From an uncultured Veillonellaceae bacterium (GTDB taxonomy: Bacteria; Bacillota; Negativicutes; JARBTT01), in contig CAWDTA010000005.1 in the NCBI GenBank assembly GCA_963805085.1, positions 416,001 to 480,000 on the forward strand: a stretch of DNA of 64,000 bases. The letters are read 5' to 3'. A program made the translations under genes and the position numbers. Positions 9,695-24,307 of this stretch are shown here, in pieces. The notes under the pieces were generated by a model. It did not search any database, was not told the origin of the DNA, and saw nothing but the letters and a program-made list of their open reading frames with translations. Within the stretch, counting starts at the first letter, position 1. Each line of letters opens with the position of its first letter.

Positions 9695-10123
9695 ATGACT
9701 TTTTTTAATGATTTTAAAAAATTTGCTATGCGTGGCAATGTTTTAGATATGGCTGTTGGGGTTGTCATTGGAGCAGCGTTTGGAAAAATTATTTCTTCTT
9801 TCGTGTCTAATATTTTAATGCCACCATTAGGATTGTTGGTTGGTAGAATGGATTTTTCAAATCTTTTTATCAATCTTTCAGGTCAATCCGTACATACGTT
9901 AGCTGAAGCGCAAGCAGCTAATGTTCCAGTCATTGCGTATGGTTTATTTTTAAATGCTGTAATTGATTTTACTATTGTAGCATTCGCAATTTTCTTTTTG
10001 CTTAGACAAATAAATCGCTTTTGTCCGAAACCTGAACCTGAAGTTGAGCGGAAATGCCCATACTGTTTTTCCACCATTCATGAAAAAGCAACGAGATGTT
10101 CGCATTGTACATCGACACTTTAA
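9695..10123 (+). CDS. mscL: Large-conductance mechanosensitive channel with C-terminal zinc-ribbon-like tail
   Basis: FKKFAMRGNVLDMAVGVVIGAAFGKII; YGLFLNAVIDF; CPYC...CSHC. Confidence 0.95.
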   Translation: MTFFNDFKKFAMRGNVLDMAVGVVIGAAFGKIISSFVSNILMPPLGLLVGRMDFSNLFINLSGQSVHTLAEAQAANVPVIAYGLFLNAVIDFTIVAFAIFFLLRQINRFCPKPEPEVERKCPYCFSTIHEKATRCSHCTSTL

Positions 10124-10226
10124 CGGTGTCATCCTTATTACATAAAACGCTTACCCATTATGCGTGTTAAGCGATTTTATTTATAAATTTATAATTTCTA
10201 TAAAGAAAAGAGGTCAATATTTTATT

Positions 10227-11099
10227 ATGGATAGAAATGGTCAATGCTGGTGTGGTAGTGGTAAAAAATATAAAAAGTGTCATTTGAGTTTTGATGAAAA
10301 AATGGATAACATAAAACTAGATGAACTAAAAGGACATATATTACCACCACGCAGTATTATTAAAACACAAGCTGATATTGAAGGCATAAAAAAAAGTGCA
10401 AAGATTAATGATGCTGCTTTGGATTTAGTAGCTAGTCGCATCAAAGTTGGTATTGATACTGAAACATTAAATCAATTAGCACATGATTATATTGTGGAGC
10501 AGGGTGGGATTCCTGCTTGCTTAAATTATAGTGGTTATCCTAAGAGTATTTGTATTTCAATTAATCAGGTTGTGTGTCATGGCATCCCATCCAAAGATAC
10601 AATTTTAAAAGAAGGTGATATTGTTAATGTAGATATCACGACGATTTTAGATGGGTATTATGCAGATGCATCACGAATGTTTATGATTGGCAAAGTAAGT
10701 GAAGAGGCTGAAAAGCTTGTACGAGTAGCAAGAGAATGCATGGAAAAAGGTATCGCTGCGATTCAGCCATGGGGCTATCTAGGAGATATTGGTGCTGCGG
10801 TAGAGCACCATGCCCACGCAAATGGCTATTCTGTTGTAGTTGATTTGGGTGGGCATGGTGTCGGTAAGAAGTTTCATGAGGAACCATTTGTGCCACATGT
10901 AGGAAAACATGGCACGGGAATGTTATTGGTACCGGGTATGGTATTAACGGTGGAACCGATGATTAACATTGGCGGCTATGAAGTTTATACGGATAGTGAA
11001 GATGATTGGACTGTTTATACGGAAGATGATTCTTTATCGGCGCAATGGGAACATACGATCTTGATTACGGAAACAGGCGTTGAAATTTTAGCAAAATAA
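10227..11099 (+). CDS. map: Methionine aminopeptidase type I with N-terminal SEC-C motif
   Basis: CWCGSGKKYKKCH; CHGIP, DIVNVD, GHGVG, EPMIN, SAQWEHT. Confidence 0.95.
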   Translation: MDRNGQCWCGSGKKYKKCHLSFDEKMDNIKLDELKGHILPPRSIIKTQADIEGIKKSAKINDAALDLVASRIKVGIDTETLNQLAHDYIVEQGGIPACLNYSGYPKSICISINQVVCHGIPSKDTILKEGDIVNVDITTILDGYYADASRMFMIGKVSEEAEKLVRVARECMEKGIAAIQPWGYLGDIGAAVEHHAHANGYSVVVDLGGHGVGKKFHEEPFVPHVGKHGTGMLLVPGMVLTVEPMINIGGYEVYTDSEDDWTVYTEDDSLSAQWEHTILITETGVEILAK

Positions 11100-11113
11100 A
11101 TTGCAATAAGATA

Positions 11114-11157
11114 CCCAATACAAAAGCTTACTCTGCACAGGTAAGCTTTTGTATTGG
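11114..11157 (+). terminator. Intrinsic terminator of map
   Basis: ccaatacaaaagcttac-loop-gtaagcttttgtattgg. Confidence 0.8.
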
Positions 11158-11207
11158 ATATTTTTAAGATGAGATAGTTTGGTAAAAATAATTTGAAATA
11201 AATTATC

Positions 11208-11245
11208 TATTTGATATTGATTATCGATATCAAATATGTTATACT
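11208..11245 (+). promoter_or_regulatory. Fur box overlapping a sigma-A promoter (copy 1)
   Basis: GATATTGATTATCGATATC Fur-like palindrome; -35 TTGATT (11217), 17 bp spacer, extended -10 TGnTATACT (11240). Confidence 0.75.
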
Positions 11246-11251
11246 GTGTTC

Positions 11252-11330
11252 ATAGCTTTTCATAGAGGCTCTCCAAAATATAAAATACACAACAAAAAAA
11301 GCTTACTTATGCTCAGGTAAGCTTTTTTTG
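11252..11330 (+). ncRNA. Candidate Fur-regulated small RNA (~80 nt)
   Basis: Promoter with Fur box upstream, no sense ORF, own terminator (aaaaaaagcttac/gtaagcttttttt), contains UUUUCAU and CUCUCC. Confidence 0.55.
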
Positions 11331-11384
11331 TGCACTTTTTGCGGTGCGATAGCTTGGTATAAAATAATTTATAATAAAACATAT

Positions 11385-11421
11385 ATTTGATATTGATAAT
11401 CAATATCAAATTAGTTATAAT
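11385..11421 (+). promoter_or_regulatory. Fur box overlapping a sigma-A promoter (copy 2), driving DUF3793-flavodoxin
   Basis: GATATTGATAATCAATATC (17/19 to consensus); TTGATA (11393), 17 bp spacer, TATAAT (11416). Confidence 0.8.
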
Positions 11422-11470
11422 AAATTTAGTTTTGAATACAAATATAGTTATCGTTTAAGGGAGATGCTTT

Positions 11471-12040
11471 ATGAATGTAAATCAACGGTTCGAACAGCTA
11501 TTAGCTTTTCATTGTGCACCAACATTGGCAGGGATAAAATCAGCGAATCTGATAAGTTGCCAGAAAGATAAATTCGCTGATTTATTTTCTTTACTAAAAG
11601 AGTATGAATGTTGTTTAAATTGTAAAGATATTTTCTTTTCAGTTTTATCAAATACTACTAGATTTGTTGTGGTCTTGGTCTACAGGAAAACAAAGTTGGA
11701 AAAAGTCTTAAATCAGGCTGAGAGCCAAGGAATATTAAAAAAATTTGCTTATAGGCAAGGCGATAGTGTTGAAAAGCATCTTAATTATTTAAAAGTGCGT
11801 ATGGCTTTTACTAAGACATTTCCACATGAAATTGGTTTATTTCTAGGGTATCCAATAGAAGATGTTTTAGGATTTATTGAAAATAAGGGACAAAAATTTA
11901 AATTATGTGGTTATTGGAAAGTGTATTCTGACGAAGCGAAAGCAAGAAAAATGTTCGAAAGCTATACAAAATGCAGCAATGTTTTTTGCAAACACTTAAA
12001 CGAAGGGATTTCTATTAAAAAACTTTTAAAAGCTATTTAA
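11471..12040 (+). CDS. DUF3793 family protein
   Basis: HCAPTLAGIKSANL, FPHEIGLFLGYP, CGYWKVY. Confidence 0.9.
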   Translation: MNVNQRFEQLLAFHCAPTLAGIKSANLISCQKDKFADLFSLLKEYECCLNCKDIFFSVLSNTTRFVVVLVYRKTKLEKVLNQAESQGILKKFAYRQGDSVEKHLNYLKVRMAFTKTFPHEIGLFLGYPIEDVLGFIENKGQKFKLCGYWKVYSDEAKARKMFESYTKCSNVFCKHLNEGISIKKLLKAI

Positions 12041-12057
12041 AAAGAGGAGGAATAAAT

Positions 12058-12486
12058 GTGGATAAAATTGCAGTAATTTATTGGAGTGGATCTGGAAATA
12101 CAGAAAAGATGGCCAAAGCGATTGTAAAAGGTGTTAATCAGGCAGGGGAAGATGTAGATGTTTTTCAAGCCAGTGATTTTAGTGCTAAAGATATAAACGA
12201 ATATGAAAAAATTGCTTTTGGTTGTCCATCGATGGGCTGTGAAGTCTTAGAAGAAACTGAGTTTGAACCATTTTTTCAAGAAATTGAATCTGCCTTAAAA
12301 GAAAAGCAAGTCGCATTGTTTGGCTCTTATGGTTGGGGGGATGGTGAATGGATGCGTAATTGGCAGGAACGCGTTATTCAAGATGGGGCGAAGTTATTCG
12401 AAGAAGGGGTAATCATTAATGATAAGCCGGATCTTGCTGGAGAAGAAAAATGTACAGCTTTTGGTGAGAGGTTCGCAAACCAATAA
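12058..12486 (+). CDS. Short-chain flavodoxin
   Basis: YWSGSGNTEKMA, FGCPSMG, LFGSYGWG. Confidence 0.95.
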   Translation: MDKIAVIYWSGSGNTEKMAKAIVKGVNQAGEDVDVFQASDFSAKDINEYEKIAFGCPSMGCEVLEETEFEPFFQEIESALKEKQVALFGSYGWGDGEWMRNWQERVIQDGAKLFEEGVIINDKPDLAGEEKCTAFGERFANQ

Positions 12487-12539
12487 ATAAAGAGCCAAAC
12501 TGGTATGTAATATTTTTTACTACAAACCAGTTTGGCTTT

Positions 12540-12857
12540 TTAAGTTAAATCTCCGTGAATTGCAAGCCAGATACAAGGGGGATTGCTTGAAGTATATTCA
12601 ACTCGATGTTTTTGATGTGCCGGCAGCAGAAGAAAATCGCCAGCGATGAGCTTTTTAAATTTATCATATTCAAAGGTAAGGATTGCTTCTCCTTGTAGAA
12701 CGAATACCAATTCGTCTTGCGGTTGGTCGTAATAAAAATTGGTTGGCGATTTTTGTCCTGCTGAAATAATCCTTTCTACAGTTAGATTTTGATTTTCTAG
12801 GATTGTTTCAAACAGTTCTTCTTTGCTTAGCGTATTAGGCAATTGAAATAAATTCAT
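12540..12857 (-). CDS. Cupin domain protein
   Basis: ERIIS, YDQPQDELVFVLQGEA, PAHQKHRV. Confidence 0.85.
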   Translation of the reverse strand: MNLFQLPNTLSKEELFETILENQNLTVERIISAGQKSPTNFYYDQPQDELVFVLQGEAILTFEYDKFKKLIAGDFLLLPAHQKHRVEYTSSNPPCIWLAIHGDLT

Positions 12858-13034
12858 CGTAATTTCCTTTCAGTATATCAGTAATATAGATCATAAAAAG
12901 TTTAGTAGCTTGTCGAACAATGCTAGATGCTGTTGTTATAAATTCATAGTTTTGTGGTAATAATAGTGAAAAGAAAGAAAAACATTGTTGACAAAAAATA
13001 AAAAAACATATATACTATCTAAAGTAACGCAAGT

Positions 13035-22045: not shown

Positions 22046-22141
22046 TTTGAAAATCATTATCATTTATCTTGACAAAAAAGATTATGTATTATATTATAAA
22101 TCCATAATAATGATTATGATTTTCATTATCATTATTATGGA
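22046..22141 (+). promoter_or_regulatory. Fur boxes flanking the feo promoter
   Basis: TGAAAATCATTATC upstream of TTGACA; long palindrome tccataataatgat...atcattattatgga (22101-22141). Confidence 0.85.
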
Positions 22142-22175: not shown

Positions 22176-22397
22176 ATGACATTAAATGATGTGAAACCAG
22201 GTACTACTGTGAGAATAGAAGGACTGGAAAATTCAAATATAAAATCTCGTCTTATGAGTATGGGGTTAATTAAGGGAACGTCAGTAAAAGTATTGCGCTC
22301 AGCGCCGATGGGGGATCCAATGGCTATATCGGTACGTTCGTATAATTTAGCAGTACGTGTAGCAGATGCAAAAAAAATTGCGGTGAGTGCAATATAA
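22176..22397 (+). CDS. feoA: Ferrous iron transport protein A
   Basis: RLMSMGLIKG, APMGDP. Confidence 0.95.
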   Translation: MTLNDVKPGTTVRIEGLENSNIKSRLMSMGLIKGTSVKVLRSAPMGDPMAISVRSYNLAVRVADAKKIAVSAI

Positions 22398-22417
22398 TTT
22401 TGAGGAGTTGATGGATA

Positions 22418-24307
22418 ATGGCAACACTTTCTGTGGCGTTAACAGGTAACCCGAATACAGGGAAAACAACAATATTTAATGCTTTAACAGGGGCGAGACA
22501 AAAAATTGGTAACTGGCCAGGGGTAACTGTAGATAAAAAAGTTGGTTATATAAATCACAATGACCGTGCGATTTCCGTGATTGATTTACCAGGTACTTAT
22601 AGTATTAATGCGCGCTCTGCTGAAGAGCAAATCGTAATTGATTATTTATTGAATGAAAAACCAGAAGTAGTGGTAAATGTATTAGATGCTTCCAATTTAG
22701 AACGTAACTTATTTTTAACGTTGCAATTACTTGAATATGGGATTCCAGTTATTCTTGATTTGAATATGATGGATGATGCCCAAAAACGTGGATTAAAGAT
22801 TAACGTCAAAGAATTAGAAGATCAGGTTGGAATGCCAGTGGTAGAAACCATTGCAAAAGATGGTAAAAGCATAAAAAAATTAATGGATGTTTTTACTGAG
22901 AAAACATTAGAGAATTATAGAGTAAGCCCTTTGATTGAAGCACACATTGCAAAAACCAAAGAAATAAATAATAGTAGTAGTAGTAAAGAAGAGATAGAAG
23001 AAGAAGTGATTACACTTCGGTATGCACTTATTGATAGTATTGTGGCAAAAGTTGTGAAAAGAAGTGGCGCGAGTACTTCTCTAACTGAAAAGATTGATCA
23101 TGTTTTTGCCAATGGATTTTTAGCTTTACCAATTATTTTAGCAATCATTTATGGTGTTTTTGAAATTACATTTACTTGGATAGGACAGCCAATGGCGGAT
23201 TTTATTAAGGATTTCATTGGTGATACTTTAACCCCTTGGGCTGCTGATGCATTGGCATCTTTAGAGGTTGCGGATTGGCTACAATCGTTGATTGTCGATG
23301 GAGTTATTCCTGGCGTTGGCGGTATATTGACTTTTGTGCCACTCATTTTCACCTTGTTTTTCTGCCTAAGCTTCTTGGATGGTACAGGGTATATGGCACG
23401 TGTTGCGTTTATAATGGATCCTGTTATGCGTCGTACCGGTCTTACAGGTAAAGGGGTAATGCCTCTTATTATGGGCTTTGGCTGCGCGGTTCCAGCGATT
23501 ATGGGAGCAAGGGCGTTGGACTCTGAAAAGGATAGAAGAATCGCAATGCTCGTTACTCCGTTCTTGACTTGCGGGGCAAAGCTTCCTGTTATGGCATTGT
23601 TTGCGGCTTTATTTTTCCCAGATGATGCAACGAATGTGGTGTTTTCTATTTATGTTGCTGGTGTTATTGTGGCGATTGTTATGGCGAAAGTTCTTAATTC
23701 TACTACTTTTAAAAGTGAGGAAAGCACTTTCTTATTAGAATTACCAACGTATAGATTTCCTGATATGAAAACAGTTTTTTTCGAAACTTGGGATAAGGGA
23801 AAAGGTTTTTTAGTCAAAGCTGGTACTATTATTTTTGCGATGTCGATCGTTATTTGGTTCTTGAGTAATTACAATTTCAGTGGGCAAGTTGAAATGGAAG
23901 AAAGCTTCTTAGCATCGATTGGTGCAGTTGTAGCGAATATATTTACGTTCCATGGTTTTGCTACTTGGGAGGCAGGTGCGGCTGTTATTACGGGTATTTT
24001 GGCGAAAGAAGCAATCGTATCTACGATGGGGGTTCTATATGGGGTTGCAGACATCGCGGATGACGCAGCGCAAGCGGCACAGCAAATGCAATCAACTATT
24101 GGTGCTTCATTTTCAGCACTTTCCGCGTACGCTTTTATGATCTTTATCGCATTGTATACGCCATGTATGACTGCGCTTGGGACGATTAAAAAAGAATTTT
24201 CCTCTTGGAAATGGACTTTGTTTTCTGCAAGTTATACCTTTGTTGTTGCATGGGTAGTCTCACTCGTGGTGTATCAAGTTGGTAAATTATTAGGGTTTGG
24301 TGCTTGA
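22418..24307 (+). CDS. feoB: Ferrous iron transport protein B
   Basis: GNPNTGKT, GNWPGVTV, DLPG, GFGCAVPA, YTPC. Confidence 0.97.
   Translation: MATLSVALTGNPNTGKTTIFNALTGARQKIGNWPGVTVDKKVGYINHNDRAISVIDLPGTYSINARSAEEQIVIDYLLNEKPEVVVNVLDASNLERNLFLTLQLLEYGIPVILDLNMMDDAQKRGLKINVKELEDQVGMPVVETIAKDGKSIKKLMDVFTEKTLENYRVSPLIEAHIAKTKEINNSSSSKEEIEEEVITLRYALIDSIVAKVVKRSGASTSLTEKIDHVFANGFLALPIILAIIYGVFEITFTWIGQPMADFIKDFIGDTLTPWAADALASLEVADWLQSLIVDGVIPGVGGILTFVPLIFTLFFCLSFLDGTGYMARVAFIMDPVMRRTGLTGKGVMPLIMGFGCAVPAIMGARALDSEKDRRIAMLVTPFLTCGAKLPVMALFAALFFPDDATNVVFSIYVAGVIVAIVMAKVLNSTTFKSEESTFLLELPTYRFPDMKTVFFETWDKGKGFLVKAGTIIFAMSIVIWFLSNYNFSGQVEMEESFLASIGAVVANIFTFHGFATWEAGAAVITGILAKEAIVSTMGVLYGVADIADDAAQAAQQMQSTIGASFSALSAYAFMIFIALYTPCMTALGTIKKEFSSWKWTLFSASYTFVVAWVVSLVVYQVGKLLGFGA

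Follow-up and report, generated by a model that had tools for sequence, protein, structure and literature searches.

A small RNA family of the Negativicutes, probably new, Fur-controlled and iron-sparing

The window analysed here is a 64,000-nucleotide (nt) stretch from an uncultured Veillonellaceae bacterium of the Negativicutes (contig CAWDTA010000005.1, positions 416,001 to 480,000), and its subject is a predicted small RNA (sRNA) gene that lies on the plus strand between the map gene and an operon of DUF3793 and flavodoxin genes (Table 1). A preliminary description, made from the letters of this stretch, had proposed an undescribed Negativicute iron-sparing sRNA that acts against Shine–Dalgarno (SD) sequences, and the computational evidence presented below supports that proposal, through the conservation of the RNA, the Fur-type boxes at its promoters, a feoAB locus behind boxes of the same type, the heterogeneity of its neighbours and the excess of iron proteins among the ribosome-binding sites (RBSs) complementary to its seed. 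We put the probability at roughly two in three (about 0.68) that window positions 11252-11331 (+) encode an independently transcribed, Fur-controlled, iron-sparing sRNA of about 80 nt, and the family to which it belongs is probably a new one with that function.

Layout of the locus and of the predicted transcript

Structurally, the intergenic region holds two copies of one regulatory arrangement. The sRNA promoter, with its extended −10 element, stands after the map terminator where the preliminary description had placed it, and the Fur-like box said to overlap it is present as a palindrome over the −35 hexamer whose arms, 11208-11221 and 11223-11236, are 93% complementary (inverted repeat I8). 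By direct reading, this operator (GATATTGATTATCGATATC) agrees at 15 of 19 positions with the classical Fur box consensus, and the operator of the DUF3793 gene (GATATTGATAATCAATATC) agrees at 17 of 19; in the 7-1-7 form of the Fur motif, the corresponding matches are TGATATTGATTATCG, with two mismatches, and TGATAATCAATATCA, with one. The two operators match each other at 97% (repeat I2), the two promoter regions share a direct repeat of 85% over 59 nt (D1), and a 176-bp direct repeat comprising terminator, spacer and operator/promoter is shared with the DUF3793-flavodoxin promoter region (D1, D3, D10), so that the sRNA promoter is best read as a paralogue of the flavodoxin-operon promoter. The DUF3793 and flavodoxin genes form a neighbouring low-iron operon that is separate from the sRNA.

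Table 1 Positions of the sRNA gene, its parts and the associated genes in the window
Feature	Position	Strand	Basis and remarks
map gene (Peptidase_M24)	10164-11099		Pfam; precedes the sRNA locus
map terminator	stem 11115-11157 (part 11085..11159)	+	Terminator scan
sRNA operator, Fur-type palindrome, 29 nt	11209-11237		Overlaps the −35 of the sRNA promoter
sRNA promoter, TTGATT-17-TATACT, TG before −10	11217-11245	+	Promoter scan
Predicted sRNA transcript, ~80 nt	11252-11331	+	Both ends predicted only
5′ hairpin P1 (AGCUUUU/AGAGGCU, loop CAU)	11254-11270	+	Fold and alignment
Predicted target-binding region: anti-SD CUCUCC (11269-11274), A/U-rich stretch, ACAC	11266-11290	+	
sRNA intrinsic terminator, 17 pairs then TTTTT, loop UGCUCA	11292-11331	+	Terminator scan
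Second Fur-type operator, perfect 13-nt arms	11385-11411		Upstream of the DUF3793-flavodoxin operon (inverted repeat I9)
DUF3793-flavodoxin promoter, TTGATA-17-TATAAT	within 11385-11421	+	Promoter scan, 11/12 matches
DUF3793 gene	11471-12040	+	Pfam PF12672, 4.3e-57
Flavodoxin gene	12058-12486	+	Pfam PF00258, 1.5e-20
Three overlapping 7-1-7 boxes (TGAAAATCATTATCA, TGATTATGATTTTCA, TGATTTTCATTATCA)	22048-22131		Upstream of feoA-feoB
feoA (73 aa) and feoB (629 aa)	22176-24307		3′ of the three Fur-type boxes

The 87-nt stretch folds at −24.1 kcal/mol (z = −4.69; equalled by 0/200 shuffles) into a weak 5′ hairpin, a strand that is unpaired from 11271 onward and the terminator. Some 40 nt rich in A and U separate the promoter from this terminator. 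A scan for open reading frames (ORFs) found no sense ORF inside the predicted transcript; the sole sense frame, a 24-codon one opening on GTG at 11246, starts 5′ of the predicted transcript start at ~11252 and has no SD sequence, so the earlier reading of some 80 nt devoid of a sense ORF and closed by an intrinsic terminator holds in substance. Taken alone, the pattern scans are within chance, with ten promoter-like sites versus 7.1 ± 2.6 in shuffled sequence and two terminator-like sites versus 0.7 ± 0.9, and the real support for an sRNA gene at this place is comparative.

Conservation, structure and distribution of the RNA

The closest comparison involves the window's own genome (G000, 83% complete), a genome of the same genus (G001, whose locus is identical in sequence to that of a Massilibacillus sp. 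record) and one of another family (G004). G001 and G004 each carry two head-to-tail sRNA copies between map and DUF3793, every one with its own operator, promoter and terminator, and G000 carries one. Across these five copies, the 38-nt core (11253-11290) is invariant, conservation sets in at the predicted +1 and ends with the terminator, the 7-nt gap from −10 to +1 is variable, the extended −10 element TGnTAnnnT is retained in 5/5, and the terminator stem shows two compensatory changes. As a reference, identity at third codon positions between G000 and G004 is 0.61 for map and 0.53 for DUF3793, and the neutral probability of retaining 38/38 positions at a per-site identity of 0.57 is 0.57^38 = 5e-10.

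Evolutionarily, the map terminator of G000 resembles the 3′ half of the sRNA, with which it has a stem core in common (AAAGCUUAC/GUAAGCUUU, located 175-176 nt 5′ of the sRNA terminator; D3, D10), and where G000 has this terminator, a complete second copy of the sRNA stands in both G001 and G004. The map terminator thus seems to be what remains, in decayed form, of the 3′ half of an earlier copy farther upstream, of which G000 would have lost the promoter and the seed and kept the terminator for map. It is a weak match to the covariance model built on the five close copies (R1; 32.8 bits, E 0.0057) and is not recovered by a broader model (R2) at E ≤ 0.001.

With these two models, on which the window sRNA scores 103 (R1) and 86 (R2) bits, we searched a sample of 151 genomes of the class. 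R1 matched 18/22 genomes of family f12, with the same core, a 5′ hairpin before it and a genome-specific terminator stem after it. R2 matched 20/151 genomes, namely 1/1 of family f1 plus the window's own genome, 1/1 of f4 and 17/22 of f12, and gave 0/126 in the 26 other families of the class; weak R1 matches in families f17, f6 and f27 were gone with R2 and were judged spurious. Genomes carry one to four copies (R2), which in Selenomonadaceae are mostly dispersed. An exact 22-mer of the core occurs in 112 stretches of a species-representative collection, and the titles among the 80 listed are Selenomonas, Centipeda, Mitsuokella, Quinella, Selenomonadaceae/Selenomonadales and one 'Veillonellaceae bacterium' metagenome-assembled genome. 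By these sequence comparisons, three families share a strongly conserved RNA body. One copy with a Fur-type box lies on a 98-kb replicon annotated as a plasmid of Mitsuokella multacida (L113, 1892-1913), and in genome G069 two copies lie ~1 kb apart on its smaller contig (C2:33867, C2:34868).

The elements that are invariant across lineages are GCUCUCC, an A/U-rich run and UACACA, the run being AAAAUAUAAAA in Massilibacillus, UAAAAUAUAA in most Selenomonadaceae and AAUAUAAUAUA in one low-GC genus. The conserved single strand can be written CUCUCC-(U)AAAAUAUA-AUACAC, and reads CUCUCC-AAAAUAUAAAAUACAC at the window locus and CUCUCC-UAAAAUAUAAUACAC in Selenomonadaceae. The preliminary description had seen in the 5′ part (AUAGCUUUUCAUAGAGGCUCUCC) the reverse complement of an RBS with start codon, GGAGAG-N5-AUGAAAAGCUAU, which direct reading confirms, and had proposed the whole as an anti-SD/anti-AUG seed; the CUCUCC block is indeed invariant across lineages, whereas the anti-AUG triplet CAU is the loop of P1, and in its place Selenomonadaceae have CGUU or an inserted hairpin 20-60 nt long. 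Nor is the seed C-rich in the sense of IsrR and FsrA, which the preliminary description had cited as known examples; it consists of CUCUCC, a long A/U-rich stretch and ACAC. The inserted hairpins occupy the P1 loop in many Selenomonadaceae paralogues (e.g., L017, L019, L027, L037, L058 and L081), and several types recur across species, so that one class of paralogue may be more stable than another or have other partners.

Among the 107 unique variants, the terminator hairpin is kept in 97, with 62 distinct 5′ arms, and the closing pairs of P1 are predicted in 95. When 20 sequences are aligned by fitting them to the model, the share of cells that pair is 89.3% versus 71.4% in shuffles (0/500 reach the observed value), with changes on both sides in 13/15 terminator pairs and 2/7 P1 pairs and with 90.9% of the P1 cells paired. 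This covariation supports, without proving, a transcribed and terminated RNA on the plus strand, the alignment itself being biased toward structure. The terminator loop is (C)UGCUC(A) in 67/97 hairpins and GUGGAG in 16/97 (loci L017-L145), and a loop that stays the same while its stem covaries suggests another point of contact, with an RNA or a protein. An Hfq gene was found in 5/5 relatives tested and not in G000, at its 83% completeness.

The operators follow the RNA to its dispersed loci. A 7-1-7 box (≤3 mismatches, ≤160 nt upstream) precedes 88/108 Selenomonadaceae copies versus 15/1080 control windows from the same loci (p 1e-96), and the arrangement there is a box over the −35, then TGnTATAnT, then 7 nt leading to the conserved 5′ end AGGCUUUCG; the distance from the extended −10 to that end is fixed in 68 non-redundant relatives. 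Within the window, the three overlapping boxes upstream of feoA-feoB make feoAB a predicted second Fur-controlled locus, and elsewhere in G000 another box pair flanks a gene that, by eye, is putatively a TonB-dependent receptor-like one. Two copies, L096 and L139, keep core and terminator behind an unrelated, GC-richer upstream sequence with no Fur box (seven mismatches) and no recognisable promoter, and may be versions embedded in a 3′ untranslated region (UTR) or produced by recombination.

Predicted targets and a proposed mechanism

Functionally, the single strand has its predicted partners in the leaders of mRNAs encoding Fe-S, haem and di-iron proteins. We computed duplexes of sRNA nt 14-43 with 3677 initiation regions of G000, called crudely as ORFs of ≥80 aa with an SD-like motif (background mean −10.3, sd 3.0 kcal/mol). 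The first rank (−25.2 kcal/mol) fell to a FrdA-like flavoprotein with a twin-arginine translocation (TAT) signal, whose gene stands ahead of those for a 2Fe-2S/4Fe-4S subunit and a CCG subunit, the second (−24.5 kcal/mol) to the alpha subunit of class-I fumarate hydratase (fumA), followed by the beta and cytochrome-b subunits, and the third (−23.4 kcal/mol) to the first gene of a glutamate-synthase-like (glt) operon with Fer4 domains (all by Pfam); rank 4 is formate-tetrahydrofolate ligase by eye, rank 6 is cydA (−21.3 kcal/mol) and rank 17 is a nitrogenase-type oxidoreductase (−19.9 kcal/mol), both likewise assigned by Pfam. Ranks 1, 2, 3 and 6 of 3677 are thus leaders of Fe-S or haem enzyme operons, and several other ranks have no annotation. 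Where duplexes are predicted with the leaders of frdA, fumA, glt and cydA, the sRNA segment that pairs is 11266-11290. A pattern, GTGTATTTNATAT, has five matches in the whole of G000, three at −31/−32 (cydA, glt and frdA), the sRNA itself and one internal to a coding sequence, and serves as an illustration only, since it was chosen after the matches were known. A count of 11-mer sites in initiation zones (14/227 in the 2.2% of sequence making up the translation-initiation-region zone) is given no weight here.

Across genomes, the leader of the operon encoding class-I fumarase, cytochrome b and fumarate reductase is the best conserved of the predicted targets. With lineage seeds, the fumA leader gives −24.4 to −24.5 kcal/mol in G000, G001 and G004 and −18.8 to −24.9 in 13/18 Selenomonadaceae, compared with −9.3 to −14.7 for 12 fumA leaders from 11 sRNA-negative genomes and the same seed. 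The leader itself, read directly, differs by lineage (UAUAUUUUGGGAGGG vs UAUAUUUAUAGGAGGG) in step with the seed, which has one more U in Selenomonadaceae, and a single A is bulged. Judged from a predicted TG-extended promoter, the UTR that contains the site is ~39 nt long. In G004 and G012, a FrdA paralogue lies just 3′ of the fumarase/cytochrome-b genes.

A second test took the 12-nt complement of the Selenomonadaceae seed, ATATTTTAGGAG, chosen before the outcome was seen, in five Selenomonadaceae genomes. Its 25 matches comprise nine sRNA genes and 16 other sites, 15 of which are at ribosome-binding sites, and iron proteins follow 11 of these 15 (7/10 families): two rubrerythrins, two reverse rubrerythrins, two NUBPL-type Fe-S carrier ATPases, a DUF362-Fer4 protein, a radical-SAM enzyme, a thioredoxin-like 2Fe-2S ferredoxin, ThiC and a NIR_SIR-Fer4 protein. 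The four non-iron sites belong to TauE, two Glyoxalase_4 proteins and a flavin adenine dinucleotide (FAD)-dependent protein. A control of 30 sites composed of six A/T followed by AAGGAGG led to 24 ORFs, 0/24 with iron, Fe-S or haem domains and one of them a NuoA-type subunit, so that 11/15 versus 0/24 gives a Fisher probability of 8e-7 by site and 2.8e-5 by family. Pairing outside the 12-mer also separates the groups (−20.4 to −25.8 for the 11 iron sites vs −16.7 to −19.5 for the four others) and extends to as many as 18/19 nt in the reverse-rubrerythrin and radical-SAM leaders. One permuted control of the seed complement gave one site.

In G000, a reverse-rubrerythrin-like gene recognised by eye (C1:177588-178130, minus strand; N-terminus MSKFICSICGY...) has an exact 11-nt seed complement at its ribosome-binding site and a Fur/PerR-like box with two mismatches ~220 nt upstream. 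Pfam-confirmed reverse rubrerythrins in genomes G046 and G126 carry the corresponding seed complement.

From a regulatory perspective, we posit that in iron-replete cells Fur would occupy the operator over the −35 and shut the sigma-70-type promoter, and that under iron scarcity it would leave the operator and the sRNA would accumulate. The single strand would then pair with iron-protein mRNA leaders, from about −32 to the SD sequence, blocking ribosome binding or initiation and thereby sparing iron, and in parallel low iron would turn on the neighbouring flavodoxin operon and feoAB. In G000, the targets would be the fumarase/fumarate-reductase operon, the TAT-exported fumarate-reductase-like operon, the glutamate-synthase-like operon and cydA; in Selenomonadaceae, they would be the rubrerythrins, the Fe-S carrier ATPase, radical-SAM, ThiC, the sulfite/nitrite-reductase-like protein and the 2Fe-2S ferredoxin. 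Of what defines Fur-repressed iron-sparing sRNAs as a class, three features are found here at the level of sequence: a Fur-boxed promoter, a predicted own terminator with no conserved ORF, and a seed complementary to the ribosome-binding sites of iron proteins. Two more, accumulation under iron limitation and in a fur mutant and repression of the targets in vivo, would be expected. Foremost among the predictions, iron limitation would shut the fumarase/fumarate-reductase operon through this RNA, which would link iron supply to succinate and propionate formation in the rumen.

More tentatively, and at well below even odds, the sRNA might be the master post-transcriptional iron switch of Selenomonas-type Negativicutes, one that shuts the succinate- and propionate-making fumarase/fumarate-reductase branch together with Fe-S, radical-SAM and di-iron proteins while flavodoxin replaces ferredoxin, with the paralogue inserts and the UGCUCA loop providing separate inputs or a protein partner. 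If that were true, iron supply would directly set the fermentation end-products in rumen and oral communities.

Competing explanations and relation to known iron-sparing RNAs

A number of observations weigh against a Fur-controlled, iron-sparing sRNA. As to the targets in G000, 9/25 shuffles of the 20-nt tail (anti-SD fixed) reach a best energy at least as strong as the real −25.2 kcal/mol, and so the duplex energies carry no weight alone and what is notable is which genes rank; the exact 11-mer complement has nine matches in G000, four with an ORF of ≥60 aa and one of them iron-protein-like by eye, too few to test. In other genomes, the fumA leader is weak (−13.1 to −14.8) in 5/18 Selenomonadaceae (three genomes of genus g50, plus G117 and G142), a generic Selenomonadaceae seed stood in for each genome's own sRNA in 15 genomes, and the frdA-TAT, glt and cydA sites, which are kept in G001 and G004, are mostly absent from Selenomonadaceae (G012 and G093 have none of them; cydA is partly kept in G075). 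The complement ATATTTTAGGAG is only about fourfold over-represented, with 16 non-self sites versus a mean of 3.9 per A/T 7-mer plus AGGAG (496/128), and the counts overstate significance because related genomes are not independent.

On the side of expression and control, the RNA runs found to match the locus are two soil metatranscriptome runs of one study (X1 and X2; 5-6% of words), whose contigs on 10900-12500 cover 11546-12113 only, that is DUF3793 and the start of flavodoxin, and leave the sRNA uncovered, which is evidence neither way. Among the Selenomonadaceae copies, 20/108 have a poor Fur box, and two have none. G000 encodes two Fur-family proteins, a Fur-like one (C5:545055) that is closest to Fur and below the equivalog cut-off, and a PerR-like one (C2:25775) that reaches the NCBIfam PerR cut-off (180.2 bits vs 180), and either paralogue is a candidate to bind the sRNA operator. 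Rubrerythrins, moreover, are typical peroxide-stress genes too. The X1 and X2 contigs are ~95-96% identical to the DUF3793 gene, which places the DUF3793 sequence of a relative in those RNA libraries.

One alternative is an sRNA that is under Fur-family control and whose main job is other than sparing iron, either a PerR peroxide response or the binding of a protein by the UGCUCA loop, which we consider unlikely. The PerR-like paralogue would suit it, as would the rubrerythrins that make up 4/11 iron-protein sites and the UGCUC loop that persists in 67/97 terminators despite 62 different stems, with Hfq in 5/5 relatives. The operators, though, have the form TGA...TCA of Fur boxes and not TTA...TAA of the PerR type, the same type of box stands upstream of feoAB and a paralogous promoter drives the flavodoxin operon, and the predicted targets are wider than peroxide defence, extending to fumarase, fumarate reductase, ThiC, radical SAM, the Fe-S carrier and the sulfite-reductase-like protein.

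It is very improbable that the element is a cis-acting leader or attenuator of the DUF3793-flavodoxin operon, terminating early unless a signal permits read-through. Its position directly 5′ of a low-iron operon on the same strand would fit, and its closest sub-threshold Rfam matches are attenuator leaders: Rfam 15, with RyhB, PrrF, FsrA and RsaE/RoxS among the families considered, gave nothing at or above the gathering score in window 10000-13000 at E ≤ 10, the best match being Thr_leader (29.1 bits; gathering score 55), and only sub-threshold leader- or terminator-like matches at the loci of fifteen relatives at E ≤ 1. These matches, however, are on the terminator hairpin only, no anti-terminator fold is evident, and a complete second operator and promoter stands between the sRNA terminator and the operon. 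The genes nearest downstream of 100 Selenomonadaceae copies represent 105 Pfam families, the commonest in 6/100; 53 of the genes share the strand of the sRNA copy and 47 do not, and this heterogeneity argues against a cis leader.

The 18-codon minus-strand ORF (MKSYEHSITYLISIINIK), which the preliminary description itself had offered as the rival translated unit, does exist behind its GGAGAG-N5-ATG ribosome-binding site, with a good SD sequence and spacing and with 18-22 open codons in 4/5 close copies, but we reject it as barely credible: it is cut to MKSYF-stop in one G001 copy, beyond MKSY the frame runs through the variable discriminator and the promoter/operator palindrome and its residues vary freely, direct reading of the complement of the conserved RNA in Selenomonadaceae shows no ATG, GTG or TTG following GGAGAG, and no minus-strand promoter was found upstream of it except for a 9/12 match at 11399-11371. 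Just as implausible is a functionless by-product of a tandem duplication that placed a promoter before a terminator, which the 176-bp repeat and the differing copy number (G000 has one copy where G001 and G004 have two) might suggest, since the transcribed part lies outside the repeat with the DUF3793 promoter and yet is the most conserved (38/38 vs 53-61% of third positions), and >100 records of another family carry the sRNA at unlinked loci.

With a Fur-controlled, iron-sparing sRNA thus preferred, full-text searches of the literature turned up neither an account of this RNA nor a Fur-controlled sRNA or iron riboregulator in Negativicutes (subscription journals and supplements lay outside the searches). 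The family is easily recognised, occurs in most of the sampled Selenomonadaceae, rumen and oral species included, brings with it a concrete regulon that can be tested, and is a good candidate for a new Rfam entry.

Among known systems, the RNA is, as judged from sequence, functionally like RyhB, PrrF, FsrA and IsrR and homologous to none of them. RyhB (RF00057) likewise has a Fur-box promoter, a length of ~80-90 nt with its own terminator and repression of Fe-S enzyme mRNAs, the last predicted here, and its targets include fumarase A and succinate dehydrogenase/fumarate reductase-type operons. RyhB, however, is an RNA of Proteobacteria with no match at E ≤ 10 in the region or at E ≤ 1 in the loci of 15 relatives, and the present RNA belongs to diderm Bacillota and carries the anti-SD CUCUCC with an A/U-rich tract. 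The targets of FsrA include glutamate synthase and succinate dehydrogenase. According to PMC9410917, FsrA of Bacillus subtilis is Fur-repressed, binds the SD sequences of Fe-S enzyme mRNAs through a C-rich anti-SD motif and needs the chaperone functions of FbpA, FbpB and FbpC, and the staphylococcal IsrR has two Fur boxes and three C-rich regions, is conserved genus-wide together with its boxes, has predicted and demonstrated targets among iron-containing enzymes, blocks translation and acts without Hfq. FsrA differs in sharing no homology with the present RNA, where only CUCUCC contains C and it is the extension, A/U-rich and with ACAC, that would confer specificity; compared with IsrR, the present RNA shows a single short hairpin at its 5′ end and a single linear seed, and Hfq genes occur in 5/5 relatives tested. 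In Pseudomonas aeruginosa, PrrF1 and PrrF2 are encoded in a tandem prrF1,F2 locus, as stated in PMC7948967. As Fur-controlled, iron-sparing tandem paralogues, they resemble the head-to-tail copies of G001 and G004 with their own operators and terminators, and they differ in lacking homology, in that G000 has one intact copy plus a relic, and in that the Selenomonadaceae copies are mostly dispersed. The Negativicute RNA would thus be another independent invention of the solution embodied by RyhB, PrrF, FsrA and IsrR, with a different kind of seed, an anti-SD block joined to a long A/U-rich tract.

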